The notes under the pieces are model-generated. The model was not told where the DNA came from, made no database searches, and saw only the letters and a list, made by a program, of their open reading frames with translations. From an uncultured Planctomycetota bacterium (GTDB lineage Bacteria > Planctomycetota > Planctomycetia > Gemmatales > Gemmataceae): a DNA stretch of 64,000 bases. Positions 4,062 through 58,370 of this stretch are shown here, in pieces (position 1 is the first letter of the stretch; each line of letters begins with the position of its first letter). The position numbers and the translations under genes were made by a program. The DNA is taken from NCBI GenBank assembly GCA_963849325.1, contig CAWKHF010000006.1, forward strand, positions 416,001-480,000, written 5' to 3'.

Positions 4062-5241
4062 ATGCCTACGGTTGCCCTTCGCCGACCGGCCGTCGCCCTG
4101 CTCATCGAGACCTCCAACGCCTACGCGCGGGCTGCTGCAGGGGATCATCTCCTACGTCCGGGCCCACCAGCCCTGGTCCATTTACCTGCCGGAGCAGGGC
4201 CGCGGCGATCCCTCGGCCGATTGGCTGCCGCGCTGGCGCGGCGACGGCCTGATCGCCCGCATCGAGAATGCGCGCATCGCCGCCCTCGTGGACCAGACGG
4301 GACTGCCCGTCGTGGACGTCAGCGCCGGCCGCTATCTACCGCGGGCTCCCTGCGTCGAGACGGACAACCGAGCCATCGCCGAGGCAGCCGTCGATCATTT
4401 CCTGGAACGCGGCTTTCGCAACTTGGCCTTTTGTGGCGAACCCGTCTTTGCCTGGTCCAACGAGCGGCAGCATTTCTTCCAGCAGATCGCCGCGCAAAGG
4501 GGGCTGCACTCTTTTCTGTTCACGCTCTCCTCTGCTCGAGGCCGCAAGAAAGTCCTGTTGGCGCGGCAACAGCAGGAGTTGGCGGAATGGGTGCGTTCTC
4601 TGCCCAAGCCGGCCGGCGTGTTCGCCTGCTACGACATCAAGGCGCAGCAATTGCTTGAAGCGTGCCGGACGATCGATGTGGCCGTCCCCGAGGAGCTGGC
4701 GGTGCTGGGCGTCGATAACGATGAACTGCTCTGCAACCTGGCGACGCCGCCGCTGTCGAGCATCATCCCCAATTCGCACCGCACCGGCTACGAGGCGGCC
4801 GCCCTTCTGGATCGCCTTCTGACCGGCCACAAGGTCTCGCCGGAGGTCGTTCCCATCGCACCGCTCGGCATTCAGACGCGCCAATCGACCGACACCTTGG
4901 CCCTCGACAACCGCGACGTGGCCGCCGCCGTCCGCTTCATTCGCGAGCACGCCTGCGCCGGCATCAACGTGGAGGACGTTCTCTCGGCGGTGCCGCTGTC
5001 GCGGCGCGTCCTCGAGAGCTTGTTCCGCAAATACCTGGGCCGCACGCCCCACGAGGAGATCGTGCGGCTCAAGATCGAGCGCGTCAAATTGCTGCTGGCC
5101 GAAACAGACCTGAGCATGGCGGAGATCGCCCGTCGCGCGGGATTTCCCTACGTCGAATATCTGAGCGCCGCCTTCAAAAAGGCCGTGGGCATGGCTCCCC
5201 GCCAATATCGCCGCCAGAGCCAGACCGTCGAGGGAAAGTAG
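4062..5241 (+). CDS. XylR-type (periplasmic-binding fold + AraC HTH) transcriptional regulator; frameshift near 4128
   Basis: VALLIETSNAYAR in one frame continues as GLLQGIISY; VPEELAVLGVDND, PPLSSI, C-terminal AraC HTH. Confidence 0.9.
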
Positions 5242-11831: not shown

Positions 11832-14800
11832 ATGTGGACCCCCAAACGGATCTTGCTGCTGGCCGTTGGCTTCGTGCTATTCACGCTGGTGTATCTCCTT
11901 TATTCGGCGACGTCGCTGGGCCGCATCAATACGCTGCCGCCGCTGCCGGAACAGTACAGCGAAGGCAATTCGTCGTCGTCCGGCGATCGGCCGCCGCGGA
12001 GTCGGTCCGACCCCCCTGGAACGCAAGATGGAATTGGCGTTCGGCATCGGCTGCAAGGAACTGAAGTGGCCGGTCCTGCTCGGAGCTGAACGCCAAGAGC
12101 ATGGTGATGGCCGCCGGCAATTTCTCGGTCGAGGACGACGGCCGCGTCAAGCTGGAGCCGATGAGCATCGGCCTGTTCGGCAAGAAAAAGAACGACGGCC
12201 GGGACATCGAAATCAATACCCTCAAATGTAAGCAAGCCTTCATCACCTTCGACCGGCCCGTTGCCTCCCTGAGTCCGAGCGAACTGAACGGCCGCAAGGT
12301 CGTCAAGGCGGAACTGTACGGCAGCCATACCCCATTGAAATCATCAACAATCGCCGCACGGCGCTGCGCGATGACGATTTGACGGTCATTATCGATACGG
12401 GTCCGCTGCACTACCTGGAGAAGAAGCAACTCATCTGGACGACCGACGTCGTCCACCTGCAGGACGGCCAGCTGACGCCGCCCAAGGCCGACATCGTCGC
12501 CAAGGGGATGGAGATGGAGCTGACAACGTCGTCGCCGCCGCCCAAGCCGGGGGCCATCGTCCACAAGCCCAAGAACGAGAGCATCTCCGGCGTCAAGCGC
12601 ATCGTGCTGAAGCAGGACGTGACCATGCACCTGTACATCGCCGGGGCGATGCCGTTCCCCGGCGGCGACAAGACGCGCCCCGCCGGCGGCGGTCAAGGGC
12701 AAGAATGAGCCGCCGCGCCGGAACCCTCGCACGTCATCATCCGCACGCCGGGGCGCTTCCAGTACGACCTGTACAAGGACCACGACATGGCTCGTTTCGA
12801 CGTGCCGGAGGGCCAGGACCAGCCCAATTCGCCGCAGGACGTCACGGTGCAACGCATCAACGAGCGGTTGGGCACGAACGACCAGCTGGTGTGCAAGCAC
12901 TTGCAATTGCGCGTCAAGCGGCGTGACGGGCCAACGCCGCCGGCCGGGGCGCCGGCGTCCTCGACGGAGCAATCGCTGGAAATCGAGACCGCTCACGCCA
13001 CCGGCCCGGAAGTCACGCTGACCTCCGACGCCGAGAAACTCGACGCCCACGGCAACGATTTCTTCTACGACGCGGCCCAGAAGCTCACCATCCTCAAAGG
13101 CGTCCCGTACATGGAGGCCGAGAAGGAGGGGAGCCTCATCCAGGCGCCCGAGCTGCGCATCCGGGACGTGCCGCTGTCTCCTTCTGCTCCGGGCAGCGAG
13201 AAAGGCGGGGCCAATCCGCCAAGGACCTATCAGCAGATCCACGCCAACGGACCCGGCAGCATTCACATGCTCAACAAAGCCACCGACAAGAGGAACATAC
13301 ACGCCTTCTGGAACGATCAGCTCATTTCAACGCGCGACGGCGAGCTGGATCTGCTGATCCTGATCGGATCGGCGCGCTTCGTGGACGATGAGCACGAACA
13401 GTTGCTGAAGGCGGAGACCCTCAAGGTTTGGCTGCTCGCCGACGACAAGAAACCTCCGCTTTCTCCCTCGCCGGCGGTGAAGGCGAAGACGGCGGGGGCG
13501 CCGGCGAGTCCCGAGTCGTCGCGCCGGCCGCACCACGTCGAGGCGCTGCGCAACGTCGTGGCCCGATCGGCCGAGCTGAACGTCCACGATACGAGCCGGC
13601 TCCTCGTCCGCTTCACGGACGTGCCGCCGTCGCGCATGCCCCCTCCCGCGTCGGGCAGTGCGAAGCCCGAAGGCCGGCCGCCGGAGAGCAAGACGTCCGC
13701 TCCCACCGTAATAGCCAAACCCGTCTCCTCCGCGGCGCCGGCAGTCGTGGCGCAGCCGAACAAGCTCGCCGCCGCGTCTCCGGTGGCCAACGTCCGGGGT
13801 TCCGCCGGAGCGCCGATGCCTGCCGGACCCGCAATGCCGGCCACCGGAGCAATGGGCAAGCCGGCGAGTGCGTCCGGAGCCGCGCAACCGGGGGCGTCCG
13901 CCAAGACCGGCCCAGCGCCGGCGCGGCCGATCGATCTGACGGCGCGCTCGGTCGAGGCGGAGGTGCTGCGCTGTGGCGAACGCAACGTCCTGGACCACCT
14001 GTGGACCGAGGGCGACGTCAAGGTGCGGCAGGAGCCGGCCAAGCCGGGCGAAAAAGGCGTCTACATTGAGGGCGATACGCTGGACATGAAGGCGTACCCC
14101 GAGGGCAACCTGCTTGTCGTCACCGGCGACATGGCCCAGCTGCAAATGGACAAGATGCTCATCTTCGGGCCGGAGGTGAACATCGATCAAGCCAAGAACA
14201 AGGCGTGGGTCTACGGCAGCGGCGCCATGCGCATGGAGAGCAACACCACCCTGGAGGGCAAGCCGCTGGGCCGTACCGTGCCGCTCACCATCCACTGGAG
14301 CCAGGACATGCTCTTCCAGGGCGATCACGCCGAATTCCGAGGCAACATCAATGCCGAGCAGGAAAGCGCTCTGTTGGCCTGCCAGTTCCTGCAAGTGTTT
14401 TTCGATCGGCCCATCTCGCTGAAAGAGGGCAATCGCGGCGATCATCCGCCCAAGGTCCGCAATCTCGTCGGCGACAAGGAAGTGCGGGTGGAAGACAAGG
14501 TGGTCGAGCGCGACCGTCTGCAGAAGTACCAGCTGCTGGAGGGCCGGTCGATCACCATGAATACCGTGCCGCGCGATGACGCGCCTCCCTCTTTATCCAC
14601 TCCTGGAGCAAGAGGCGAGAAAGGAGGGGGCCGCGGCAGCGATGCCAGCGAGGTGCATCTGTCCGGCCCCGGCAGCGTGCGCATCCTGCAGCGCGGAGGG
14701 ACGGACCTCGCTACGCCGTCCGGCAAGCCGGCGCCGGGCAAACCCGGCACTCGACCGCCGGCGGCCGCCGACCAGGAGATGAAGCTGACCTACGTGAGCT

Positions 14801-15255
14801 TCGAGCATTCGATGCAGGCCAGCAATCGGACGAACACGGCGGTTTTCTGGAAATCGGTGCGCCTCCTCAATTTGCCCTGCGAGAACCCGTACCGCGAGAT
14901 TGACCTCGACGCCATGCTGGCCTCGGAACTGCCGCCCGGAGCGATGTACCTGCGCTGCAACCGGCTCAAGGTGCTCAGTCAGCCGGCGCCGGACGGCAAG
15001 AGCCATCAGGAGATGGAGGCCAACGGCCAGGTCATCGTGCAGGCCAAGGAGTTCACGGCCCAGGCCGACCACATGACCTACAACGAGGCCAAGGACCAAA
15101 TCATCTTCATCGGCGAGGGCGGCAACCACGCAACGCTATCGAAGATCATCGCCAAGGGCGTCGAGCCGCAGGTACTGCGGGCGCGGAAAATCATCTATAT
15201 TCGCAGCACCGGCTATGCCTGGGTGGATAAAGGCGAGGAGTTGAACGGCAATTGA
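11832..15255 (+). CDS. Large membrane-anchored beta-rich protein, probable LptC/LptA (OstA-like) jellyroll repeats; several frameshifts
   Basis: N-terminal TM helix, beta-strand-rich segments with Pro/Ala linkers, C-terminal QADHMTYNEAKDQIIFIG; follows kdsD-kdsC. Confidence 0.55.
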
Positions 15256-15268
15256 GAAGCAATCTCCC

Positions 15269-15311
15269 AAGCCGCTTGCGGCTTAGCGGCCAAGCTAAGC
15301 CGCAAGCGGCG
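15269..15311. repeat. REP-like palindrome (AAGCCGCAAGCGGC family)
   Basis: GCCGCTTGCGGCTTAGC...GCTAAGCCGCAAGCGGC between convergent genes. Confidence 0.75.
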
Positions 15312-15321
15312 TCGAGGCCGC

Positions 15322-16082
15322 TTACTCCTTCTTGCTCGGCAGCTCGATGACCTCGACCTTGCGATACTTGACGACGGTGCCGGGATCGTGTCCTTGCAGG
15401 GCGAAGTGCCCCTTGCTGTAGTTGTTGTTCTCGTCCACGAAGTCCACCGTCGTCTTGTCGTTGACCTTGATGACGATGTGATTGCCCTTGGCGATCACTT
15501 CCTGGGTGAACCACTCGTCGGGCTTGACCAGCTGCTCCTTGATCAAAATCTTGTCGTGCGCTCCGGGGGTGAGCTTGATCGACGGATACAGGCTGCCGGT
15601 GCGGATGGGGTCGCGGTGCGTGCTGTTGATCTGGGCCTCGTAGCCCTTGGGGAAGTCGGCGCCGAACTGCGGTGCGGAAATACTGGCCGCTGTTGCCGTG
15701 GTCGTTGATCTTGGCCTCGACGCGGTAGCGGAAATTCTCGTAATCGCCGCGTTCGGTGAACAAATGGCTGTGAGGACCGCTGCCGATGAGGATGCCTTCC
15801 TCGACGTGCCACAGCGGCACTTCCTGCCCTTGTCCTCCCTTTTTCAGCTTGCCGTGGTAGGCGATCACCTTGCCGTCCTGCTCTTTCTTGACGATCTCTT
15901 CGATGTCTCCGGGATTGGGATTGGAGTACATTTTCCATCCGGTCAGATCCTTGCCGTTGAAGAGTGGCGTCCACTTGCCGTCGTCCAGGCCCTTGGAATC
16001 GGCGGCGGCCGGCAGGGACGCGAAAGCCAGCGCCGCCAGGCCGGCCAGCAGCACGGCGAAACTCAGCAGATGTCGTAGGCAT
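15322..16082 (-). CDS. DUF1080 (3-keto-disaccharide hydrolase-like) protein; frameshifted
   Basis: WTPLFNGKDLTGW, GNSGQYFR, KGHFALQGHDPG. Confidence 0.88.
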
Positions 16083-16117
16083 GTCCAGATGCTCCTTCGT
16101 CGGAGAAATTCGGATCT

Positions 16118-16152
16118 CAGCGTAAGCGAGGGAATGTCCCTCGCTTACGCTG
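16118..16152. repeat. REP-like palindrome (CAGCGTAAGCGAGGG)
   Basis: CAGCGTAAGCGAGGGA...TCCCTCGCTTACGCTG. Confidence 0.7.
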
Positions 16153-16166
16153 CGGGCTGTTAGCCC

Positions 16167-17088
16167 TTACTTCTTCGACTTCTGGGGCGGCGTGGGCAAT
16201 TCGCTGGCGTGGGGGGCGGCGGATCTTCAGGTTGGGCGTAACGTCGGCCTCGACGCGGCCCAGCGTCCACGCCAGGGCGCCTGAGAGCAAGGTTTGCATG
16301 ACCGGACTCTCCCAGACGTCCTCGCGGTGGCCCATCGACGTGTAGAAGACACGGCCCTTCTCGTGCTTGCGCGCCCAGGTGGCCGGGTAATTCGGCCGTT
16401 CGTAATCGAAATTCTTCATGCCCTTGGTGTCCTGCACGAGGATGACGTGCAGGTCCGGCGCGAAGTTCTTCAGCGAATACCACTCCTCGTTCAGCTCAAA
16501 ATCCTTGGCGTCCTTGATGCCGGGGAAGTGGGGATCGACCACGCGCATCCAGGCTTTTTGCTGCTGGCCGTGCTTGATGAACTCGCCGCCGAGCATGGCG
16601 ATGTAGGGATCGACCTTGTCGCGCTCCTGGTTCTGCCACTGGCCGCCCTTGCTGTGGAAGGTATCGCTGGCGCAGTGGCAGCCGACGAAGCCCTTGCCGC
16701 CGGCGACGGCGTCGAGCAGCGCCTTCTTGCCGGCCTTCGACATCGGCGGCGAACCGTCCTTGCACTTTTCGCTGAGCAGATCGCCCTGCGTCTCGAACAG
16801 GAAGCCGTCGAACGTGGGGAAGTCCTTCGACTCGAAGACGCGGCCATCCTTTTCGCAAAGGACGTCGAGGTTGAACTTGGCGCCGAACTCGGTGACGATC
16901 CGCTCGGCCAGCGACGGCTTGCCGCCCTTGCGCTCGACCACGGAGTGCTGGAAGCCGACCGAGCGCGTGTACATGAGGAGGCGGCGTTTGGCGGCGTCGG
17001 CCCCGGCCGTCCAGCCTTGCGGCAGGCGGGCGGCGCCCAAGAGCAGCGCGGCGAGACTCGATTGTTGCAGCCATTGACGTCGATTCAT
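16167..17088 (-). CDS. Tat-exported ThuA domain protein; frameshift near the 3' end
   Basis: MNRRQWL twin-arginine leader; GKGFVGCHCASD, EEWY, KGRVFYTSMGHREDVW. Confidence 0.88.
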
Positions 17089-26035: not shown

Positions 26036-27321
26036 TTAACTAGGTCGCTGCATTCTTAGGATCATCCCCGCGCCGTCCTGTCGCTCCTCCGGCTCCTCAT
26101 CCTTCCAGAATACCGGCACGATGCCAAGCGTTTCTTGCTCCTGAATCAAGCAGGACAGGTTGTGGCAGAGGATTTTGCACAGCACTTCGTTGACCATCGA
26201 CATTTCGTTCTTGCTCGCCACCCTGTCGCCGAACTTCCGCTTGATGGCGCGAGAAGGTGATCTCGACGTTGCTGCGCTTGTGATAATGGGTCATGTACTC
26301 TTCCTGGTTGCACTGAAAGTAGTGGTAGGCTTTCTCGAAAGCGCCGCCAATCGCGCCCGTGCTGTTGGACTTGAAGGCAATGAACGCCTGCCCGCCGCAA
26401 GCTGCAACCTCTTCAAAGTTCTCCACGGAAAGGTAAGCCTTGTCGGCGCTCACTTCGCCGATCTCAAAATGCGTCTTCGTCTCGCGGACCAGCGGGACGA
26501 ACTGAGGGCAATCATGGGCATCCTTGTCCAGAATGCGGACGGCAGTAACGACATTCGTTTTCACGCCGGAGGCGATATGCGTCTTGACCCAGATGCCGCG
26601 CGTCCGCGTGACGCCGTACTTGTGGTCGTACCAGCGCTCGTAGACGGCAAGTGCTGAACCCGCTGCTGTCGATGGCGAAGTCTTTTTCGACCGGATCGCA
26701 ACGGACGGGCCTTTCGCCGACGAGCTGCTTGAGAACCGGCGTGTAGTACGGGTCTTCCATGAACGTTGTCGCCTTCATGCCGGGAATCAGCTTGCGGGTG
26801 AATCCTTTCTCGTAGGCTTCCTGCAAGGTCTGTGGAGAAGCGGCGGGCGCTGTAAACCGCAGTAAACCTTGTAGGCCATCGTGAAGACGGCATCACTAGA
26901 ACGCGTGCGGCTTCGTGCCCGTCGTGCTTGCCGGCCGCTGCGCGATCTGGCACGACGGCGAGCAGAGGTCGTGCAAGAGGACGCGGAGGCGGCGCTTCTC
27001 CGTGGCTTGCGCCATGTTGTACTTCGGCCAGTCCTGCTTGTAGGTCTTCCGCTCGGTGAGCGTAATCGTCTTCGTCTCAATCACGGTGCCATCCGGCAGC
27101 ACATCCCTCTTGTGGACGATGGACGCGGCGTAGAAGTGCTTGCAGGTGTTGCCGCCGTCAACGTGATCCAGGCAAGTGCAGGTCTTCGCTTCCAGGTTGA
27201 CGCGGTACGTCGCGTTACCGCTCTTGTTGGACTGGCTCGGCACAAGCCAGGTGCCGTCGTTCATGCGGTTCAGCCGACAGGTCGCCGCGATGATGAGTCC
27301 ACGCTGCTCTCTGGCGTCCAT
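26036..27321 (-). CDS. Transposase: N-terminal SWIM zinc finger + IS4/IS5-clan DDE domain; frameshifted
   Basis: CTCLDH...CKH (SWIM); FAIDSSGF, HDCPQF, ADKAY, YHKRSNVE.TFS (YREK-like). Confidence 0.85.
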
Positions 27322-31126: not shown

Positions 31127-32428
31127 TCAATCCGTTGCAGGCGGCGAAAACCGTAGGACCATCCGCGCGCTGTCCTGTCGCTCCTCTAGCTCCTCATCTT
31201 TCCAGAAACCGGGCACGATGCCAAGCGTTTCCTGCTCCATGAATCAGGCAGGACAGGTTGTGGCAGAGGATCTTGCAAAGCACTTCGTTGACCATCGACA
31301 CGTTCGTTCTTGCTCGCCACGTCTGCCCCGAACTTCCGCTTGATCGCGGAGAAAGTGCGTTTCGACGTTCCACCGCTTGTGGTAGTGCGCCATGTACTCT
31401 TCCTGGTTGAACTGGAAGAAGTGAAACGCCTTCTCGAAAGTGCCGCCAACCGCGCCCGTGCGCGTTGGACTTGAAGGCGATGAACGCCTGCCCGCCGCAC
31501 TCGGCGACCGCCTCAAAGTTCTCCACGGATGGCGTAAGCCTTGTCCGCGCATCACTTCGCCGATCTCGAAGTGCTTCCGCGTCTCGCTTGACCAGCGGGA
31601 CGAACTGCGGGCAATCGTGGGCGTCCTTGTCGAGAATGCGGACGGCCGTAACGACGTTCGTTTTGACGCCGGAGGCGATGTGCGTCTTGACCCAGACGCT
31701 GCGCGTCCGCGTGACGCCGTACTTGTGGTCGTACCAGCTTCTCGTAGCCGCGAGCTGCCGAAGCCGCTGCTGTCGATGGCGAAGGCCGTTTCGAGGGAGC
31801 GGAGCGGGCGGGCGCTGTCGCCGATCGAGTTGCTCTGAGGATCGGCGTGTAGTACGGGTCTTCCGCGAACGACGTCGCCTTCATGCCGGGAATCGGCTTG
31901 CTGACGAAACCCATCTCGTAGGCTTCGTGCAGGTCCGTGGTGAAGCGGCGGGCGCTGCAGGCCGCAGTAGACCTTGTAGGCCATCGTGAAAAGGGCATCG
32001 CGAACGGCAGTGCGGCTTCCTGCCGGTCGTGCTTGCCGGCCCGGTCGCGGGCCGGGAGACGGGAGCAGAGGTCGTGCAAGAGGACGCGGAAGACGGCGTT
32101 TCTCCGTCGCCTGCGCCACGTTGTACTTCGGCCAGTCCTGCTTGTAGACCTTCTTTTCGGTGAGGGTGATGGTCTTCGTTTCGATGACGGTGCCGTCGGG
32201 CAGAACGTCGCGCTGGTGGACGATGGAGGCGGCGTAGAAGTGCTTGCAGGTGAAGCCCGCCCTCGGTGTGGTCCGGGCAAGTGCAGGTCTTCGCTTCCAG
32301 GTTGACGTGATAGGTAGCGCGTCGCCGCCTTGGTGGACTGGCTCGGCACAAGCCAGGTGCCGTCAGGCCAGGCGGTTGAGCCGACAGGTCGCCGCGATAA
32401 TCAGGCCGCGCTGCTCTCTGGCATCCAT
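31127..32428 (-). CDS. SWIM-DDE transposase, second diverged copy; many frameshifts
   Basis: MDAREQRGLIIAATCRL, CTCPDH...CKH, FAIDSSGF, YHKRWNVE; stop codon lies in the left-end repeats. Confidence 0.85.
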
Positions 32429-32563
32429 AGCGATTGCCTTCCATTGAAGGGCGGAATCGCGTAGAATGAATCTTATGCGAGGTCGCATTCTGGCGCTGAT
32501 CCGCCGGACTGTGATCTGCTCAGCAGCCGTTAGCGCGGCTGCTGAGCGTTTCGGTTTCTGCAA

Positions 32564-32637
32564 GGTGCATGACGGGAATCGAACCCGCAACCCTCCGACC
32601 ACCAATCGGTTGCTCTGCCTGTTGAGCTACATGCACC
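32564..32637 (-). tRNA. Atypical tRNA: GGT at the anticodon position with His-like G-1:C73
   Basis: G-GTGCATG TA GCTC-AACAGGCA-GAGC A ACCGA-TTGGTGG-TCGGA GGGTT GCGGG-TTCGATT-CCCGT CATGCAC-C folds as a cloverleaf; no encoded CCA. Confidence 0.8.
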
Positions 32638-46840: not shown

Positions 46841-47799
46841 ATGAGCATGAGCCACTTCGCCGACCGTCTGGCCGCCGCCGTGCGGGCCAAGGGCAACGCC
46901 GTGTGCGTCGGCCTCGATCCGCGCTGGGAATCGCTGCCGGCGAGCCTGCGCGATCGCCACGGCGGTGCGACGCTGGCCACGGTGGCCGCCGCCTTCGAGG
47001 AGTTTTGCGGCCGGGTGCTCGACATCGTGGCTCCGCTGGTGCCGGTGGTCAAGCCGCAGAGCGCCTTCTTCGAGGCGTGCGGCCCGGAGGGCATGGCCGT
47101 GCTGCAACGTCTGTTGCGCAAGGCCCGCGACCTCGGTCTGCTGACCATCCTCGACGGCAAGCGCAACGACATCGCCTCGACGGCGGCCGCCTACGCCGAC
47201 GCCGCCTTCGCCGGCACGCGCCTGGCCGGCCGTACCTATCCCGTCTGGGAGGCCGACGCGCTGACGATCAACCCCTATCTCGGCCGCGATGCCGTCGAGC
47301 CGTTCCTGGAGAGCGCCCGCCGCGCCTCGCGCCGGGCGTGTTCGTGCTGGTGCGGACCAGCAATCCAGGCGCCGGGCAGTTCCAGGATCTGCTCGTTTCC
47401 AGCGGTACGGAGCCGGCCCGACCGTTGTATCAGCACGTCGGCGCCGCCGTGTCGGCCTGGGCGCGGGAGAACCTCGGCGCCTGTGGCCTGGGCGACGTCG
47501 GCGCCGTGGTCGGTGCGACGTACCCGGCCGAACTGGCGATGCTGCGGGCGATTTTGCCGGAGGTGATCTTCCTGGTGCCCGGCTTCGGCGCTCAGGGGGG
47601 CACGGCCGCCGGCGTCGCCACCGCCTTCCGCTCCGACGGACTGGGCGCCGTCGTCAACAGCTCGCGCGGCATCCTCTTTCCCTTCTCGCCCACCGAGCCG
47701 AACTGGGAGGTGCGTATCGACGAAGCGGCTCGCGCCGCTGTCGCCGCCCTGGCGTCAATTGGCAAAGATGTCGGTGGCGGCGGCGCGCGGCGCTCGTAA
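46841..47799 (+). CDS. pyrF: Orotidine-5'-phosphate decarboxylase; frameshift near 47330
   Basis: VCVGLDP, KPQSAFFE, DGKRNDIAST, LVRTSNPG, LVPGFGAQGG, VNSSRGI. Confidence 0.93.
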
Positions 47800-47870: not shown

Positions 47871-49139
47871 GTGGTCTATCCCAAAATCGTTCGCATTCGT
47901 CAGAACTTCGAGCGGCCTCGGGTGGCCGACATCCCCGCGGCCGTCGCTTCGACCCTGGAGAAACTGGACCTGGGCCAACGCATCCGGCCCGGCCAGACCG
48001 TCGCGCTGACGGCCGGCAGCCGCGGCATCGCCAACATCCCGCTCATCCTGCGCAGCACGGCCGCCTTCCTCAAGAAACTCGGCGCCAAACCGTTCCTCGT
48101 CCCGGCGATGGGCAGCCACGGCGGCGGCACCGCCGAGGGACAGCGGCAGCATCCTCGAAAGCTACGGCATCACCGAGGAGTTCGTCGGCGTGCCGCATCC
48201 GCGCCTCGATGGACATCGTCGCAGGTCGGCGTCACGCCCGAGGGCTTTCCCGTCTTGCTCGACCGCATCGCCTCCGAGGCCGACCACATCGGCGTCGTCG
48301 GCCGCGTCAAGCCGCACACCGGCTACCACGGCCCCATCGAGAGCGGCCTGATGAAGATGATGATGATCGGCCTGGGCAAGCACGCCGGCGCCCTCGCCTA
48401 CCACCGCATCCTCCTCGAACACCCTTACGACCAGGTCGTCCGCTCGGTCGGCCGGACGCTGCTGGCCGCCGCCCCCATCGCCTTCGGCCTGGCCCTGGTC
48501 GAGAACGCCTACGACGAGACGGCCTCGATCGAAGCGGTCGCGCCCGGAGACGTTCGAGGCGCGCGAGGAGCAGCTGCTGGCCGAGGCGCGACGTCTGCTG
48601 GCCCGGCTGCCGTTGCGCGAGGCCGACCTGCTCATCGTGGACGAGATCGGCAAGAACATCAGCGGCTCGGGCATGGACACCAACGTCGTCGGCCGCAAAC
48701 GCGCCTTCCGCGCGCCAGCCGCCGCCCGGACGGACTCGCCGATCCTGCGACTGATCTTCGTCCGCGGCCTGACGCGCGAAGACGCACGGCAACGCCACCG
48801 GCATCGGCCTGGCCGACTTCACCACGACGCGCCTCGTCCGGCAAATGAACTACCGGGCCACCGTCATCAACTGCCTGACGGCCGGCTATCCCGATGGGGC
48901 GTTCCTGCCGGTCCATTTCGAGACCGACCGCGAAGTGCTCGACGCCGCCCTGGCGATCATCGGCACGCGGCACGCCGGAACAGGCGCGGCTCATGCGCAT
49001 CCGCAACACGCTGCACCTGGACGAAGTGGAGGTCTCCGAGGCGTGTCTGACCGAGCCGGATCGGCAAACCGATTTCACGCCGATCGGCCGGCCTCGAACG
49101 CTGGAGTTCGACGCGGCCGGCAATCTGCCACCCTTGTGA
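47871..49139 (+). CDS. LarA-like/DUF362 domain protein; frameshifted
   Basis: GSRGIANI, PAMGSHGGGTAEGQ, RVKPHT, IGLGKH, GKNISGSGMDTNV. Confidence 0.8.
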
Positions 49140-50640: not shown

Positions 50641-52391
50641 ATGGCTGGCCGATGCTTTTACGTCTCGTGGGTGGACCTTCGCACCGATCCGTGGCCGCAG
50701 TGGGAGAAGGTCCGACCCGGCACCGGGGAGATGATGCTGGAAGGGCAACGCATCCGCTGCCTGCCGGTCGACCATCCCCACTGGCCGGCCGTCCCGCTGC
50801 TGGAGCAGGCGGGGCCGCCGATGGTGGCCGACCCGCGCCTCGGCCGCTACGTCTGGCCGGGCATCCCGCTTGTGCTCGACGGCCGACCATGCCGCCTCTA
50901 CACCGGCCCGACGCTCAGCGCCCTGTTCCATCCGGGCAGTCGATTCTGCAATCTCGAAGGACTCGATGTCGTCTACCTCTTGTATCAGCCCGAACGCGCG
51001 GACGGATCGCACGAGCTGTTGCGCAACGTCCTCGCCCGACTCTGCCAGGCCCGCGACATCCAGAACGCGGACAAGCGAATCCAGTTCGTGGACGTCAAGG
51101 GCATCGCCGACCCAACCGACCACGCCGCCATCATTCGAGCGATCGAACAATGGCTGGGGCGGGACGACCCGTTCGATCTCGGCCGCCGCGGCTCGGCGAA
51201 AAACCCGCCGCGCATCGTCATCAACCTGAGTCCGGGCACGCCGTCCATGCACGCCGCCTGGCTGATGCTGCGCTGGAATGGAGCGCTGGGCGGGCGGAGA
51301 GTATCGTCGAATTCGTCCAGGGCGACGGCGGACTGGTCGAGCGCTGCCGTCGAGGGACCGCCGCCCAACCCGCTGCGCATCGTGCCGATCGACGTGCTGG
51401 CTCAGTGGTCGGCCGCAACGGGGGCTGGCGCCGCAGCCGGCCCTCGGCCCGGAAGAACCGAGCGTGCCGCTGGAAGAGCTGAACGGCCCGCCCTTCGACG
51501 ACCTGCGCCAGAAGATCGACCACGCCGCCATGCTCGGCCTGCCGATCCTCTTGCAGGGCGAGCGCGGCACCGGCAAGACGTTCCTGGCCCACTACTACCA
51601 TCAGCGCCGACAATTCTACGCGCCTTCCAGGCGGAGCGAGGCCGCGCCGGCCAAGACCGGCGGCGCAAGGCGACGGCAAGGAGGCGATGCGAAAGGCCGC
51701 CGAACGCTTCCCGGAGAAGACCGGGCCGAGCAGCTTCGTCGGCGTCACGCTGTCGGAGTTCGCCGACCTCGATACGCTGCGCGACACGCTGTTCGGCTGG
51801 GCCAAGGGAACGCCTGGACCGGCGCCTACAAGGCGTACGACGGCCTGCTCGGCGAGGCGCACGGCGGCACGCTGTTCCTCGACGAGATCCACCACCTGAC
51901 CCGGCCGTTGCAGGCGGCGCTGCTCGGCCCGCTCAACGCCGCCGCTATCGCCCCAAGATGGCCGACCTACGAGGTCATCAGCCACTTCGACCTGGTCGTC
52001 GCCACCAACGATCCGCAAGTGGCGCGACAAGATGGCCGACGACTTCCGCGACCGCATCGAGCGGATCGTCCTGGAGGTGCCGTCGTTCCGCTCCTTTCAG
52101 CGACACGGGGCGGACATCATCTGGCGGTTCTGGGAGTTCACGCTCCGCCGCCGCTGCCGCGAGTGCGGCATCGAGTACAGCGGCGAGGGACGGGCTTGGC
52201 CGGAGTGCTGCGAGCAGCTGAAGGGCTGTTCCGACGTCACCCGCTGGCGCGGCAACTGGCGCGATCTGCAACGCCTGGCCGACAACTTGCTGCTGCATCT
52301 GACCTCGTCCCGCGACGGCCGGCCGTCGCCGATCCGCTGGGACCGCGACAAGCTGGAGCACGCCATCGCCGAGACGTTCGCGGAGACGTGA
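50641..52391 (+). CDS. sigma54-type enhancer-binding AAA+ ATPase with RtcR/CARF-like N-terminal domain, no C-terminal HTH; frameshifted
   Basis: DPTDH and IVINLSPGTPSMHAAW; Walker A GERGTGKT; LFGWAK..AWTGA (GAFTGA variant); GGTLFLDEI; VVATN; DFRDRI; WRGNWRDLQR. Confidence 0.8.
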
Positions 52392-52438: not shown

Positions 52439-53458
52439 ATGGCCAGACGTGCCGGTGTGCGCAAGGGCATTCAGAAACAGGGACAGACGCAGGTGCAAAT
52501 TCAGACCACCATGCGGCGCCGGGCCGGCGTGGAGGAACTGAGTACCTGGCAGGAGACGGCAGTTCGCCCCGGCGTTTCCCCGCGCGGCGGCGACCTGGGT
52601 TACGATGAGGAGGCGGACGGCGATCAGCTGCTCGACGACGGCGAGGAATCCGGGTCCAGCGAACCGACGGGCGATGATTGCTTCCAACCCGAGGAGTCGG
52701 ACGATGAGCCGCAAATCCGTCATCGGCTGACAGTGGCCGATCTTCTCGGTTCACGACCTCCGGTAGTGCTTCTCCGTCTGAGCCTGGAAAACGGTGCGGT
52801 CGCCGTTCGGACCTGTGCGCGACCGGCTTCGCGCGATGCCGGCCAGGCTCTGGAGCTGCTGCGTGACTTCGTGACTCGATGCTTCCAGGATGGCCGCGCT
52901 CACTTCACGGACGCCGAGTGGGACCAGCTGCTCGGCAATGCGCGTCGCCGTTGGTCCGCCGTTTAACGCTGTTGCTACGACTGGCGGTCAAGGGCCGAGA
53001 GAAGGTCCGTCTCGACGAGGAGAGCGAGGCGGCATTCACGCCGCACGACATCGGCCTGGAGCGCTTCGCCAACAAGTTCGCCGCCCTGCCGGACGGCACG
53101 CCGTTCAGCATTCGTCTGCTCTTGTTGGACCAGCGCGGCCGCGAGCGCGGCGAGCACTTCTTCGATCAACTGCCCGAACGCCGTCAAGCTCCTGGCTCTG
53201 CGGCGGGCCTTGCAGCGCGAGCGGCAAAAGGGCGTGGCGGTCAGCGACCACGAATTCCGCGACGAGATCCAGCACGCCCTCGAAGAACTGCTCGGCATGG
53301 AAGTGCCCAAGCCCACCGAAGACCAGGTGCGGCGACGCCTGCGCGACAACTTCAAGCGCAAAGGTCTGGGCGACCTCTTCCCCAACCAGGCCGCCCGCCA
53401 GCGCGAGCACGACCGGATGGCGGCGACTGCCCCCGTCCGTACCGAGGAATCCGCATGA
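52439..53458 (+). CDS. Divergent sigma54 (RpoN)-like protein, about 340 aa; two frameshifts
   Basis: Gln-rich N-terminus, acidic linker, NKFAALPDGTPFSIRLLL, and VSDHEF...VRRRLRDNF...FPNQAARQR C-terminus in RpoN order. Confidence 0.55.
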
Positions 53459-56400
53459 GCGCCAGCCTGCTCGCGCATGTCGGTCTAGATCTTGTCACTC
53501 CTCGTGTCGCAGCCCTGCGGCTAGGGGAGTTGACCGTCGAGCCGGTGCAAACCGTTCTCGGCCGCGCCGACCTGGCGGGTAGCTCGCGCCCACTGCCATC
53601 TAGTGCCGTGCTCTTGAGGCTCGGCGATCAGTCGTTGTGGCTGCCCGCACCAGCCGCACCAGCCGCGCCGTCCGAGCCGGACGAAGGCCGAGCACCGATC
53701 TATCTGCACGGCGGACAAGAACTCGTCCTGCCCTTCGTCCGTCTCTTCGTTCTCCAAGCCGACCAGGAACCGGACAAGGCACGGGTCGAATACCTGGGTC
53801 TGTCCGATTGGTTGGACGACGCCGTTGCCGTGTGGCGCTTCGAGCCGGCACGGCGGGATGGCTCCCCCCGTCCGCTGCTGGACCATCTCGAACAAAACGC
53901 GACTTCGCCGGCCGAAGCCTTGCAAGCGATCAGCCGGGTACTTTGTTTCGCCTTGTTTGGCGCGGCAAGCCCGGCCGTGGTCGGTGGCCTGCGTCTGCCC
54001 GCCTGTCCGATGTGGCTCCGCCCCGTAGGAGAAACGCCATTCGCGCGCCGTATCGCCCGCGCGCTGGTGGTCACTGCTCGCCTCTCGGCCGATCCCGCCA
54101 AACCGACCGTGCCCTCCACGAACTTGCGGACATCGGCCTACCGCATTCGCCCCGCCGAGCCGCGCGATTGGGGTCTCGATCCCGTCCACACGCCGGAAGG
54201 CGCCGACATCCGCCTGACCGGCCGACTCGGCGTCGGTGTCGCTGTGCGCGGCCGGGCGCTGCACGCTCCGGAGACGGAACGGCCGCCGTTGTCGGCGTCC
54301 ACGGCCCGGCTGCCGTTCGCCGGCTACAACGACCCTCGCCGTCTGCTGATGGCCGCCAACATGCAGGCACACGCCGTGCCCCTGCCGCGACAGGAACCGC
54401 CTTGCGTCCGCATGACTCCCGAAGCGGATGACCCGCCCGGCGTCAACCTCCGCGTCGGCTACCTCGCCTGGCAGGGTTGGAATCACGAGGACGCCTGGGT
54501 GCTGTCCGAATCCGCAGCCCGGCGTCTCGGCACGCTCCAGGTTCTGGTGCAGACCATCGCCATCCGTGCCGTCGAGGTGGCTCCCGATCTGCTGGTGCAG
54601 TGCGGCCAGCCGGTCGAACGTGGCCAGCTGCTCGTCCGTCGTTTTGTGGCCCCGGCCTTGCTCTGCCCGTCGCTGGAACTGCTGGCGACGCTGGAAGACC
54701 TGGACGACAAGGTACCGCTTCGGCCGGAGGTCGATGACTCGGCTGCGGAGAGCGGCACCATCATCCGGCTTGAAGAATGGGACCTGCGCGACCGGCGCGG
54801 CCTTCCGATAGACTGGCAAGTGCCGGAAGCGGTGGCCGGGGCATTCCGGACTGTTTATCGCATCCACATCGAACGCGCGCTGCCGCTGAGCGTTGGCGAC
54901 AAGCTGGCCAACCGGCACGGCCACAAGGGCGTCGTCGGCGCCATCCTGCCCGATGACGACATGCCGCGCTGGCGCGGTCGGCCGCTGGAAGCCCTGATCG
55001 ACCCGATCAGCGTCCTCAACCGCTCTAACTGGGGACAGGTCTACGAGGCACTGGCCGGGGCGCTGGTGGAGCCGGGTCAGGTGCGCGACGTCAACGGTGT
55101 CTCCGGCGAAGAGGTGCGGGCGGAGGCACAACGGGCAGGGGCCGACGCACAGGGCCGTTGGCTCATCGAGCCTCCGATGGCGGCACGCTGGTTGACGAAG
55201 GAAGTGCGCGCCGTCGCCGGTGTCCAGTACGTCATGCGGATGCCGCATCACGCCGCCGACAAGATCTCCGGCAATCCTCCACCGCCGCCATCGTTGGGTT
55301 ATCGGGTGCGCCGCCGATCGCAGCGGCTAGGCGAGATGGAGCACTGGGCGCTGTGGGCGCACGGCATCGGTGCGCACGGCCTCCTCCGCGACCGAGGACG
55401 GCGGACAGAGGGCGCTGTCTCCCGCCGTGGCCCGTCTTCGCCGCTTGCTCGGGTCGGCCGGGTTCGGCATGGACGTCGAGGGCGGATCGCTGCTCGTTCG
55501 GAAGCTGGCGCTCGACGCGGAGCCACCCGCTGATAACAAGATATTATCTCTCCTTAAAGAGAATGAAACAAGCACCGCGGAGAGCGGCGTGGAGGGAAGC
55601 AAGGAAACGAAGTCCCCGCGATCCCTGGCCGAACTCTACGACGCCCTGGATGCGGTCGCGCCCGAAACGCCGACCGTACTCGTCTTCGATCCGCCGCTCC
55701 TCCGCCCATCCAAGGGGGATGACGTCGAGGTGGCGCTGCGCTGGATGCCCGTGTTGCCCGCCTGCGATCGCCCGCCGCGGCGTTGGTTCGACGGCTCGGA
55801 GGAGCCGCACGAATTGACCGCCGACCTGCGCCGCCTGGTCCGCCTGATTCGCAAACGTCGGCAAGCGCGGACGGAAGACGAGGACGCCGCCAACGCGGAA
55901 CTGTTCTACGCCGCTCGCCAGTTCCTATCCGATGCCTACATCGCGGCGGTAGGGCGCGGGGCGACCGGCCCATTCAGCAGTAAACTGGCTTACTTGCGTC
56001 GCGGTGTGCTGGGGCAGCGCTTGCCCCGCTCGGCACGGGCGACCGTCTCTCCCGGCGGTACGCGGCGTTTGGGACTGGACGAAATCGGTCTGCCGCCGGC
56101 GCTGGCCCACACTCTTTTCGGGCCAGGACTGCCGAGCGAGGAAAACCAGTTGGCCGAGGTCGTCGCCGGCCGCTGGGTGTGGCTCAAGCGCGATCCGGTA
56201 TTGCACCGCTGGGGTCTGCTGCCGGTGCGCGTCCGTGTCGTACCCGGCGTCACTATCCGCCTGCCGGCGTCGCTGCTGGGACCGCTGGGGGCCGATTTCG
56301 ACGGCAACACGGTCGCCCTCTTCGCCGCGTTGCCCGGTGCCCTCGCCGACCTCCACGCCTGTTCGCCGCCGGCGCTCGCCTGGCACCCGTTGCTCGACGA

Positions 56401-57307
56401 AGCCCTGTTCCAACCGAGCAAGCAGTATCAATACGGTCTTTTCCTTTTGTCACAAAGCAGAGAGCAAAAGGAACGATTGCAACTGGCGTTGCAAGCCGAG
56501 GGCGCCCTGACTTGGCCGGATGAGTCCGACCCCAAAAGGGCATTTTCAACCTGGGTCCGTCAGGCCATCCAGCAGGGACCGAAAGGACATTGGTGGGCCA
56601 TCCTCGAAGTATACGCCCTGCACGCCCTGGCCGACGATCCCGCGATGGGCTTCGGCCTAGGTGACGTGGACGAACTGGCGCGGTTGCCGGTGGTCCGTTG
56701 CGGAGCGGCCAAGGATCTGTATGGCGGTGTCGAGCCGCCGGCGTCCCCCGCGGCGCGGACGGACTGGGAGCGAAACCGGAAGGCGATGGCGGACATCTTG
56801 CACGGACAAAGCCTGACGATCTATCGGCGCCGCGGCGATTTGGGCGATCCTATCGCCGACGTCATGGTCGCCGCCAAGGCGTCCATCGGCCAGTTCGGCG
56901 GCGCCCTGCGCCGGCTGGTGTACTCCGCGGACCATCTTCGACCCGAGGACATCCAAATGGCCCAATGTCTGACCGAGCAGGTCACGCAAAAGGCGCTGAG
57001 CGTCAAAGCGGGCAAGCCTCCGCTGTTGTACGCCGACTTCGAGCGGCAGCTGCGGCAACTGCTCAAACGGCAAGAGTTGAATGAATCCGAGCGGGAGAAA
57101 CTGCAAACGCTGCTGGCTGAGATCGGCAAGAAACTGGAGCCGGTCTGGACGGCTTTGGGTTCGTTGATGCCGAGCGAACCCAAAGCCTGGTTGGAATGGC
57201 TGCGGAAGCCGCACGAATTGGACGAACTCGTCGCGGCGAAGGGCGAGATTCGTCTGCCGCTGGACGATTTACGCTTACGCGCGTTCCTGTCGGAGCCTGA
57301 AGCGTAA
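53455..57307 (+). CDS. Minimal two-barrel RNA polymerase with beta- and beta'-like parts, probably one chain (frameshift near 55370)
   Basis: beta motifs RLLMAANMQAHAVP, GWNHEDAWVLS, GDKLANRHGHKGVV, RSNWGQ, QRLGEMEHWAL; beta' motifs PVLPACDRP, LGQRLPRSAR, RDPVLHR, ADFDGN, LRRLV, EQVTQ. Confidence 0.88.
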
Positions 57308-57355: not shown

Positions 57356-58186
57356 CTAGGCGAGTCCGTCGGGGGCGTTGCTGAAAGTGCCGTGGCCGAA
57401 GCGGATTTTCGGCGGCGTCACCTTGGTGCGGTGATCGGGGGCGGCGTTGCGGCCGGCAGCGTCCTGGCCGTGGAAGTAGTCCTTCTGCCAGCCATCGCCC
57501 CGGACTTCGCCCTGGGCTTTCTGCTGGTGAAACATGTTACGCGATTTCTGCCACTCCAGGTAAGAGTTGTACACCTCGGGGTTGTCGGCCAGGCGGTTGT
57601 AATTGATGGTGGCCCCTTCGAGGTCGGCGCAGACGTTGCTGATCAGGGGGACCGCCTGGAAGAGCGGCTCGCCGACGTTGTAACGAACCGGCTCATTGGG
57701 CCGCATGATCTTGTAATTCATCGTGAACGACATGCTGATCCAGTCGCTCTCGACCAGCGCGGTGAGCGGGTGCAAATTGTGCTTGAAGTAGTTGACCGGC
57801 CCGAGGATCAGCAAGCGCGAGCCGGGAGGATTGGTGCGGAAGAGGAACGGTGTGTTCCAGGTGATGATGCCCTCGCCGAACTGGTTGTTGATCCAGCCCA
57901 TCCAGAACTCGGGGGCCGCGTCGAACCAGAACTCGATGGTGCCCGGCTCCATCCGGCCGCGCCAGATGGCGGTGAAGCCGACCGGGTTGTTGATCCAGAA
58001 GCCCGTCTGGTTCATGATGGTCAGGGGCAGGCAGCGGTAGGCGTGGTGGCTGGGCGTGGCGTCCATCCATTCGCGCCGCCTCTCGGCCCAGCCCCAGTCC
58101 CAACCCGTGCCGTCGCGGCGGTGCTTCTTCAGCGTCTCATCGCCGGCAATTTGATAAATGTTGATCTCAAAAGGCGGTTGTGACAT
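57356..58186 (-). CDS. DUF6065 family protein
   Basis: RREWMD...AYRCLPL, QFGEGIITW, LVESDW, FTMNY, WQKDYF. Confidence 0.8.
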   Translation of the reverse strand: MSQPPFEINIYQIAGDETLKKHRRDGTGWDWGWAERRREWMDATPSHHAYRCLPLTIMNQTGFWINNPVGFTAIWRGRMEPGTIEFWFDAAPEFWMGWINNQFGEGIITWNTPFLFRTNPPGSRLLILGPVNYFKHNLHPLTALVESDWISMSFTMNYKIMRPNEPVRYNVGEPLFQAVPLISNVCADLEGATINYNRLADNPEVYNSYLEWQKSRNMFHQQKAQGEVRGDGWQKDYFHGQDAAGRNAAPDHRTKVTPPKIRFGHGTFSNAPDGLA

Positions 58187-58370
58187 GGCTGCTCCAGGAT
58201 CGGGACCGGCCCGATGCCATCGAGAGGGAATCGTACTCGATAGCAAGTGCGCGGCCGGCTGAGACGGATCTCCCCTCAATCCCTAGCAAACGTCCAAGGC
58301 TTCGTCAAGCGAACGCCGCCGCTTTTGCGGGGCCGGTCCCGAGCCGCTTGCGGCTTCGCGGCAACGGGTC

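Follow-up and report, generated by a model that had tools for sequence, protein, structure and literature searches.

To our knowledge, transcription initiation by sigma54 with a bacterial enhancer-binding protein (bEBP) is the only ATP-requiring initiation pathway in bacteria, and it is known only on the single RNA polymerase (RNAP) of the cell. Several variants of the bEBP are described. RtcR reportedly binds RtcAB and responds to fragments of tRNA whose ends carry a cyclic phosphate (PMC7790460, PMC9650030), and RtcR-like proteins that combine a CARF domain, an ATPase and a helix-turn-helix (HTH) have already been described at defence loci (PMC4012209, PMC11090510). The bEBPs without a DNA-binding (D) domain are placed in group 5 (FlgR, CtcC), and FleT is listed as lacking both the regulatory (R) and the D domain (PMC7175178). 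Here, we describe a gene at positions 50641-52391 (plus strand) of a 64,000-nt stretch of DNA, hereafter the window, from an uncultured Planctomycetota bacterium of the Gemmataceae (assembly GCA_963849325.1, contig CAWKHF010000006.1, positions 416,001 to 480,000). It encodes a CARF sensor joined to a sigma54-type AAA+ ATPase without an HTH, and it is followed by a candidate sigma54-like mini factor and by a fused beta/beta' mini polymerase. By a narrow preference, we read its product as a ligand-gated, enhancer-independent activator that would be dedicated to a private sigma54-like polymerase.

The activator gene

The activator gene was delimited from its open reading frames (ORFs), three-frame translation, frameshift-aware alignment to the intact homologues P0004 and P0002, and comparison with 38 homologues. 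It starts with an ATG at 50641 and stops with a TGA at 52389-52391 that lies in another frame, so that no single frame connects both ends; frame 1 of the three-frame translation contains GIADPTDHAAII and IVINLSPGTPSMHAAWLMLRW. Pieces of the uncorrected gene matched the Pfam family Sigma54_activat (PF00158) with E values of 4.2e-6 and 7.7e-11, and the frame-2 ORF matched it at 1.1e-17. After frame correction, the translation contains an N-terminal CARF sensor domain (50641-51410), which has a beta-rich insert after strand 1 and carries DPTDH and NLSPGTPSMHAAW, and a bEBP-type AAA+ core (51480-52300) with Walker A, an insert of ~40 aa, loop 1, Walker B, sensor I, the arginine fingers and a lid with sensor II. 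The corrected core includes Walker A GERGTGKT, Walker B LFLDE, VVATN, FRDRIERI and GNWRDL, the last of which (52251-52268) is the counterpart of the sensor II motif GNVREL. Loop 1, at the GAFTGA position (KG(T/N)-AWTGA, 51804-51826), reads GWAKG(T/N)-AWTGA, and the reading frame shifts immediately ahead of the loop, at 51813. The stop comes 46 aa past the G of GNWRDL, without an HTH.

Over the N-terminal domain, the corrected protein is 72-75% identical to P0002 and P0004, and it retains all family-invariant residues of our family alignment (alignment A1). Given the 38 homologues (37 with intact frames) and these retained residues, the alignments indicate that the feature is beyond chance. The activator gene is a genuine gene of a rare family, but its sequence in the window is too error-laden for use as it stands. 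A first-pass annotation, made from the letters of the window without database searches, had described an RtcR/CARF-like sensor, a complete AAA+ core, a loop 1 that departs from GAFTGA and an early stop after sensor II with no HTH. These features are all present, and correcting the frames restored neither GAFTGA nor a C-terminal HTH. The same annotation had placed a single frameshift just before loop 1; the site was right, and the count was too low, as 10 or 11 breaks were found.

A family without a helix-turn-helix

A word-indexed search of 5.8 billion proteins with the intact 218-aa N-terminal piece returned 38 longer homologues, all of which, except for P0001, are encoded in a single frame (505-668 aa). 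In alignment A1, the N-domain of ~260 aa carries an invariant NLSxGTxxM and several invariant Trp. It is followed, in order, by Walker A (GERGTGKT), the ~40-aa insert, TLSEFxxxxxLRDxLFGW leading into loop 1, Walker B (GTLFLDE), VVATN, DDFRDRIERI and a lid with two invariant Cys, and the family stretch GNWRDLQRLADN is colinear with the GNVRELxNxIERA sensor II of ordinary bEBPs. The motifs (Walker A, Walker B, sensor I, arginine fingers and sensor II, in bEBP order) are invariant in A1. Intact homologues matched PF00158 at 7.8e-24 and 3.3e-27, and a family-profile sequence search of solved structures gave LuxO, NtrC1 and PspF as the closest AAA+ relatives (~1e-19). The gene call behind the closest database homologue, P0001 (80% identity, 533 aa), has a frameshift too: past LLGEAHGGT, it follows the same wrong frame as window frame 1, to the same ...SAASS stop.

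From the start of GNWRDL to the chain end, the tail measures 43-49 aa in 37 of the 37 homologues having the motif (39 rows were examined, of which P0001 is frameshifted and P0041 is a duplicate of P0014), which leaves no room for an HTH. Consistent with this, no HTH family matched the window pieces or the intact homologues. The aromatic position of loop 1 is Trp in 21 of the 38 homologues, Phe in 16 and His in one. Ten of the 38 read [AGS]WN[LR]A and six read exactly GAFTGA, while ten more have [SA]FTG or FTD. As judged from the alignment, Trp in loop 1 is typical of the clade that includes the window protein and not of the whole family, so that the conservation of this residue, a point raised by the first-pass annotation, does not extend to all members. 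For PspF, the Phe (F85) and the Thr (T86) of GAFTGA are reported to contact sigma54 region I (PMC3467059).

Distant CARF-AAA+ relatives (L014-16, L034-36, L038 and L057) carry GAFTGA, GAYTGA, GSFTGA or GTYSGA, and most of the nine distant relatives examined end in a Fis-type HTH (...GNKxxAAxLLGLPRKTFEYRL). We built a tree of the AAA+ core with 51 rows, leaving out P0001 (frameshifted) and P0019, P0021 and P0030 (N-truncated); P0032, which reads GNWRAL, was removed by the motif filter. The 33 HTH-less proteins in this tree form one clade with 100/100 support and a stem of 3.7 changes per site. Because this supported clade is nested among HTH-bearing CARF proteins, the tree indicates that the HTH was lost once, in the ancestor of the family, with a burst of change.

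The CARF sensor domain

The sensor domain was modelled with AlphaFold from an intact orthologue (L024:301-1110) and an alignment of 35 rows (pLDDT 87.5, pTM 0.86). Foldseek against the PDB returned Csm6 or Can2 in all of rows 1-10, with Csm6 as the best match (E 5.3e-5, probability 1.00). VIA-wide, which is independent of Foldseek, returned CARF proteins in all of rows 1-21, with Z from 12.5 to 7.6 (best match: rmsd 3.3, 138 aligned residues); its CARF matches were Can2, Csm6, Cdn1, Card1, VC1899, Csa3, Cad1, Csx1, a ring nuclease and Cami1. These results agree with the PADLOC model RtcR_PspF1--CARF_AAA_HTH, which matched residues 88-553 of P0004 at 5.4e-59 over profile positions 19-389 of 468 and left positions 390-468, the HTH part, unmatched. 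The PADLOC model names reportedly come from the CARF classification of Makarova et al. 2020. Among the NCBIfam models, RtcR (NF038308) was the best by 9-11 orders of magnitude, over the AAA+ part only, with scores (96, 101.8 and 81 bits) far under its cut-off of 650. The Pfam family Cas_Csm6_CARF gave weak matches at the NLSPGT motif (E 0.039-0.17).

Six residues after strand 4 (N232, L233, S234, G236, T237 and M240), at the ligand pocket, are invariant in A1, and the K/R typical of proteins that bind cyclic oligoadenylate (cOA) is missing from this pocket. RtcR is reported to lack the basic residue of cOA binders likewise (PMC4012209). We note that the family profile, run against the sequences of solved structures, matched AAA+ domains only and nothing over the N-domain, and that the Pfam RtcR N-domain was without a match at E up to 1-5. 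Neither Foldseek nor VIA-wide returned an RtcR CARF chain, which does not show that the folds differ. Taking the model and the profile matches together, the N-domain is a CARF domain and the protein is a relative of RtcR, not RtcR itself. No Cas10 was found in the genome (84.69% complete) with TIGR02578 or TIGR02577.

A candidate sigma54-like mini factor

The middle gene (52439-53458, plus strand) starts 48 bases past the activator stop. It encodes a protein of ~340 aa with 2-3 frame changes, and it was delimited by tblastn, frameshift-aware alignment and 109 relatives. Its family comprises 109 cluster representatives at E up to 1e-3, including 58 at up to 1e-30, and nearly all of the 109 are 300-360 aa long. 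No Pfam, NCBIfam, PADLOC or PHROG family matched the protein, and the ESM Atlas gave a best feature score of 0.80 with no named family. The structural model (48 sequences, pLDDT 82.3) predicts a confident basic, Gln-rich N-terminal helix (7-35), a disordered acidic linker (36-95) and a globular alpha/beta part (96-330).

Three comparisons of this protein gave results that are weak but concordant on the DNA-binding end of sigma54. In Foldseek, sigmaN/sigma54 chains, recognised by entry titles and chain lengths (316-455), occupied 16 of the first 25 rows, with a best E of 0.17. The top row of VIA-wide was Aquifex sigmaN (5ui5_V; Z 5.8, rmsd 5.9, 157 aligned residues, model 106-318 versus chain 204-397), which was also the only chain of 48,161 with a Z of at least 5 to the model. 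When the 48-row alignment was compared with 18 planctomycete sigma54 sequences by hhalign (E 0.0024, score 32.4, probability 12%), columns 200-313 aligned with positions 398-486 of 489 in sigma54, in the same C-terminal register as the fold match. Six negative controls, with one side reversed or with an unrelated alignment, scored 14.7-19.0 (E 0.032-0.58), and the pair with both sides reversed, which is expected to preserve true similarity, reached 24.2 across the same columns. Within the hhalign columns, the RpoN-box residues lack conservation. The middle protein showed no counterpart of the sigma54 core-binding domain, and a Foldseek search of BFVD with its model returned nothing under E 0.3.

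Based on these sequence and model comparisons, we lean, with modest confidence, towards homology between the middle protein and sigma54, and the proposal of the first-pass annotation that a sigma factor lies next to the activator is plausible in a sigma54-like form. Complex prediction for the activator and the middle protein, based on the alignments of P0032 and P0042 respectively, scored 0.00 in both runs, without controls, and is evidence neither way.

The mini RNA polymerase

The third gene (53461-57307, plus strand) encodes a fused beta/beta' mini RNA polymerase of ~1280 aa, in which one frame change, near 55372, is certain. The window polymerase matched the Pfam families Rpb2_6 (2.9e-22) and Rpb1_2 (2.2e-11), as did its intact 1300-aa homologue P0040 (2e-20 and 1.8e-8), to which it is 53% and 42% identical. 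Its polymerase motifs include GDKxANRHGHKG, and it also carries GDKLANRHGHKG. The metal-binding motif (56288-56308, DNA GGGGCCGATTTCGACGGCAAC) reads GADFDGN in the window, with AAC as the last codon, compared with GADFDGD in P0040 and in the related genome G020 and GADYDGD in the genome G041. The Asn in place of the third metal-binding Asp reflects either an error in the consensus or a substitution that inactivates the enzyme.

Gene linkage and rarity

The order activator, middle gene and 1300-aa polymerase is intact in L027, L028 and L029, which are one sequence found in three metagenomes. Immediately past the activator lies the middle gene, both in the window and in three to four further lineages, among them L024, L025 and L027-29; the polymerase is next in order in the window and L027-29. 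P0033 and P0043 probably share one contig of 12,602 nt, as the equal lengths of their longest contigs suggest. In G041, all three genes are present, on three contigs. Downstream of the activator in L031 lies an insertion sequence (IS) transposase. In L025, two ORFs (12998-14131 and 14154-16814) were considered as divergent polymerase genes and rejected; they show no similarity to P0040 and are probably antisense ORFs.

The activator family is sparsely distributed. Among 40 related genomes, only G020 has a relative of the module, and it is a remnant. Among 400 other Planctomycetota genomes, there was one weak match, which bears an HTH. A pattern scan of one genome per species found 12 loci, and only L012 and the remnant L013 belong to the activator family. 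In the window, the neighbours of the activator are a metallophosphoesterase gene, the sigma-like gene and the mini polymerase. Housekeeping and polysaccharide-export genes surround the locus. No effector gene is conserved beside the trio.

Two of these genomes showed further details. The G020 remnant, in a metagenome-assembled genome (MAG) of the Gemmataceae (L004, G020:C288, 5581-9896), consists of a 155-aa CARF piece ending in a stop, with no AAA+ part and no middle gene, and of a polymerase in three ORFs (619, 326 and 175 aa). The sigma-like gene of G041 is isolated from the other two and is flanked by an ScpB-like gene and a DUF1501 gene (L085, G041:C267, 5943-6914). DUF1501-type genes are typical of planctomycetes. 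The G041 MAG is labelled Alcaligenaceae despite its DUF1501-type gene, and this label or the binning may be off.

Promoter searches

The sigma54 promoter pattern TGGCAC-N5-TTGC, with up to two mismatches, was matched 68 times in the window versus 70.5 expected, with no match in the intergenic DNA of the module. Upstream of the activator (within 250 nt), a motif WGCRR-N4-TSCRGAC(T) occurs once or twice in L012, L025, L028 (identical to L027 and L029) and L030, that is, in four of six upstream regions; its exact form is missing upstream in the window and in L024. The whole 8.16-Mb genome has 89 matches to this motif, and a scan of the window for it as a private promoter gave 22 matches versus 22.75 expected, with a pattern that was one base too long. 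We discounted the motif as evidence for a private promoter, since it was derived from the same loci, L012 and L025 are close kin, and one further L012 copy, in a duplicated segment, faces a convergent gene. The recurrent motif may be a private promoter, an operator or a mere repeat element.

Copies of the motif near TGCRR-N4-TGCGGACT lie at 4250-4470 and 9639-9900 in L012, 9811 and 9871 in L025, 9816 and 9921 in L028, and 1235 and 1474 in L030. The whole ~200-nt upstream segment of L012 is duplicated 5.5 kb away. Two copies of TAAGCGAyrwTTGCGGAC, 273 nt apart and intergenic, were seen elsewhere in the window genome (G000:C2:957222 and 957495, minus strand; L086 8223 and 8496). They are much like the L030 motif copies, with no module gene near them and no obvious downstream gene on that strand.

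Proposed mechanism

We propose a three-gene module in which an RtcR-type activator is followed by a sigma54-like mini factor of ~340 aa and a single-chain beta/beta' polymerase. The mini polymerase and the mini sigma would form a closed promoter complex that, like the sigma54 holoenzyme, is unable to open by itself. A nucleotide-type signal or a damaged-RNA end at the CARF domain would release or assemble the ATPase ring. Loop 1 (AWTGA here) would then engage the mini sigma at its N-terminal helix, and the complex would be opened by hydrolysis of ATP. Neither an enhancer nor an HTH would be needed, because the activator would serve one dedicated partner.

A broader claim can be made, to which we give slightly less than an even chance. 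The trio would be a complete orthogonal, ligand-gated system of the sigma54 type with its own polymerase, a stripped-down sigma54 and an enhancer-free activator, and the CARF domain would tie its firing to an intracellular nucleotide or damaged-RNA signal (e.g., during phage attack or host polymerase shut-off). The origin of the family (the stem of 3.7, the loss of the HTH and the passage from GAFTGA to WTGA or WNLA) would then record a bEBP re-aimed at a private sigma54. If true, the module, built on a polymerase of 1300 aa and a sigma of 340 aa, would allow promoter opening by a ring ATPase to be studied in a minimal setting, and the natural series of GAFTGA, WTGA and WNLA would show the co-evolution of loop 1 with its sigma target. 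It would also be a transcriptional output of CARF signalling beyond RtcR and Csa3, and would be usable as an orthogonal, small-molecule-gated expression module.

The first-pass annotation had proposed an activator free of enhancers, co-evolving with the sigma beside it and responding to a nucleotide or damaged RNA, and the CARF/RtcR-like sensor, the loss of the HTH, the altered loop 1 and the plausible sigma neighbour lend this proposal partial support. Its suggestion of an anti-phage role found no such support, as no PADLOC model matched the partner genes and two pattern scans of the viral contigs of IMG/VR, which also bear on a viral origin, returned no relative of the activator or of the middle protein.

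Several observations weigh against a dedicated sigma54-like partner, and our arguments need to be interpreted with these in mind. None of the 48 middle-protein members matches any Pfam sigma54 model at E up to 10. The Foldseek values (E of at least 0.17) are within the range of unrelated rows and of the BFVD search, and the sigma54 rows represent only two or three proteins, each solved many times. The Z of 5.8 is under VIA-wide's own caution line of 8, and the hhalign probability is low. With regard to linkage, the three genes are dispersed in G041, there is no polymerase within 10 kb in L025, and in the clade of L026 what lies downstream of the activator is an unrelated, convergent response regulator-PP2C gene. 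The window yielded no promoter for the module. An exact GAFTGA persists in six of the 38 family members. With a normal rpoN (above the curated cut-off) and ~17 ordinary bEBP genes (23 Sigma54_activat matches), the host offers a target of its own. Finally, the 10-11 frame breaks and the DFDGN metal site of the polymerase mean that this copy may be dead.

Alternative explanations

The last of these points leads to the possibility of pseudogene decay here, in the activator gene and perhaps throughout the module. The breaks would then be real mutations and nothing would function in this genome, regardless of the role of the family in others. Frameshift-aware alignment placed 10 (versus P0002) or 11 (versus P0004) single-base breaks in the activator gene, all within 51295-52247. 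They are a mix of -1 and +1 changes with several compensating pairs spaced 25-50 nt, and the track of GC content at third codon positions, in which the coding frame moves 1 > 2 > 0 > 2 > 0, agrees with them. This density (10 events in 0.95 kb) compares with one sure event, and 1-3 in all, in the adjacent 3.85-kb polymerase gene. Because of it, the GADFDGN motif and the clear remnant in G020 (the sole relative among the 40 related genomes), we keep decay as a minority reading, doubtful but of real weight. Against it, the corrected path has no in-frame stop and keeps every invariant residue at 72-75% identity, and decay would not give indels without substitutions. Indels with the conserved residues all kept are the pattern of consensus error. 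Essential genes of the same assembly are likewise broken: rpoB and rpoC are each split into four pieces, two tandem uvrA genes into ~6 pieces each with in-frame TGA codons, and rtcB into three (G000:C1:334967-343005; C2:476809-482562; C10:46269-47539), and pyrF in the window is also split. The assembly (8.16 Mb) is only 84.69% complete with just 14 contigs because it is indel-rich as a whole. The breaks are therefore probably assembly indels.

The product of the gene could also be an ordinary bEBP lacking the D domain, similar to FlgR, CtcC or FleT, that acts from solution on the host sigma54-RNAP and perhaps switches on the module through a -24/-12 promoter. We consider this main rival unlikely. 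It draws on the rpoN gene of the host, which is also found in G041, on the fact that bEBPs without the D domain are established (PMC7175178), and on the six exact GAFTGA loops and the ten further [SA]FTG or FTD loops. However, the sigma54 promoter is not enriched in the window and is absent from the intergenic DNA of the module, and the Phe that contacts sigma54 region I is replaced in 22 of 38 members, ten of which (WN[LR]A) have also replaced the Thr-Gly. The long stem of the clade and the tight operon with a sigma-like protein suggest a change of partner. More remote still is a reading in which the ATPase, gated by its CARF domain, does not activate transcription but serves a conflict system as remodeller or effector, with the polymerase making primer, decoy or signal RNA instead of mRNA. 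RtcR-like CARF-ATPases are indeed linked to restriction and CoCoNuT defence loci (PMC4012209, PMC11090510), the family is rare and patchy (38 in 5.8 billion proteins, one weak match in 400 genomes and one in 40), and there are no known target genes. Yet no PADLOC model fits the middle protein or the polymerase, the trio has no conserved effector gene beside it, the window locus lies among housekeeping and polysaccharide-export genes, and the protein retains all AAA+ features specific to sigma54 activators.

Other features of the window

Upstream of the activator, pyrF (orotidine-5'-phosphate decarboxylase, 46841-47799) is divided between two frames and the LarA/DUF2088-like gene after it (47871-49100) among several. 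A gene for a DUF6065 protein (57356-58279, minus strand; Pfam 1.4e-63) is convergent with the polymerase gene and is not found beside the module in other loci. Between 24000 and 34000, the GC content is lower (0.56-0.60 versus about 0.65). The same sequence occurs there twice, at 26962-27256 and 32065-32362 (~5.1 kb apart), seen as identical motif matches, and the only tRNA of the window (tRNA-Thr, 32563-32637) adjoins this low-GC repeat stretch, which may be a mobile element or a duplication.

Comparison with known systems

The activator is most similar to RtcR and the RtcR-like CARF-AAA+-HTH proteins (PADLOC RtcR, RtcR_PspF1 and RtcR_PspF2; NF038308). Both have a divergent CARF domain and an AAA+ core of the NtrC/PspF type, and both are without a basic residue after strand 4 (NLSPGTPxM). 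Unlike these proteins, the activator family has no C-terminal HTH, often has Trp in loop 1, and carries a CARF insert of ~65 aa, rich in beta strands, and an ATPase insert of ~40 aa after the Walker A helix. The activator is also not located by rtcBA (the sole RtcB match of the genome is on contig C10, and the window is on C6), and is linked instead to the sigma-like gene and the mini polymerase.

With FlgR of Helicobacter, CtcC of Chlamydia and FleT of Rhodobacter, it shares a sigma54-type AAA+ core without a D domain, and hence independence of an enhancer (reported for those proteins in PMC7175178). Those proteins have a receiver domain or none and act on the only RNAP of the cell with a genuine sigma54, whereas the activator family has a CARF domain and putative private partners. 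FlgR, CtcC and FleT keep GAFTGA.

The logic that we propose is that of sigma54 and its bEBPs: a ring ATPase would act through loop 1 to open a closed complex. The predicted helix, acidic linker and DNA-binding part of the middle protein would mirror sigma54 regions I, II and III. However, the middle protein is only ~340 aa long, with no core-binding domain detected, no conserved RpoN box and no Pfam match, and the window-type polymerase is a single chain of 1300 aa and not an alpha2-beta-beta'-omega enzyme.

The polymerase has a shrunken beta/beta' core outside the rpoBC operon in common with YonO of SPbeta, the enzymes of phiKZ/AR9 and crAss-like phages, and the RNAP of yeast killer plasmids (PMC2919709, PMC5467207). 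For those non-canonical two-barrel RNAPs, we found no report of a sigma54-like factor or of a bEBP-type ATPase, and the term 'AAA' is absent from PMC2919709. Likewise, we found no paper in which an ATPase of the CARF or bEBP type is connected with a mini polymerase or with a mini factor resembling sigma54, although the CARF-classification tables and Supplementary File 4 of PMC4012209, which were outside the search, may list the family. What appears to be new is an HTH-less CARF-AAA+ protein tied to a candidate sigma54-like mini factor and a single-chain polymerase: the activator gene is a variant of a known architecture, and the complete module may go beyond such a variant.

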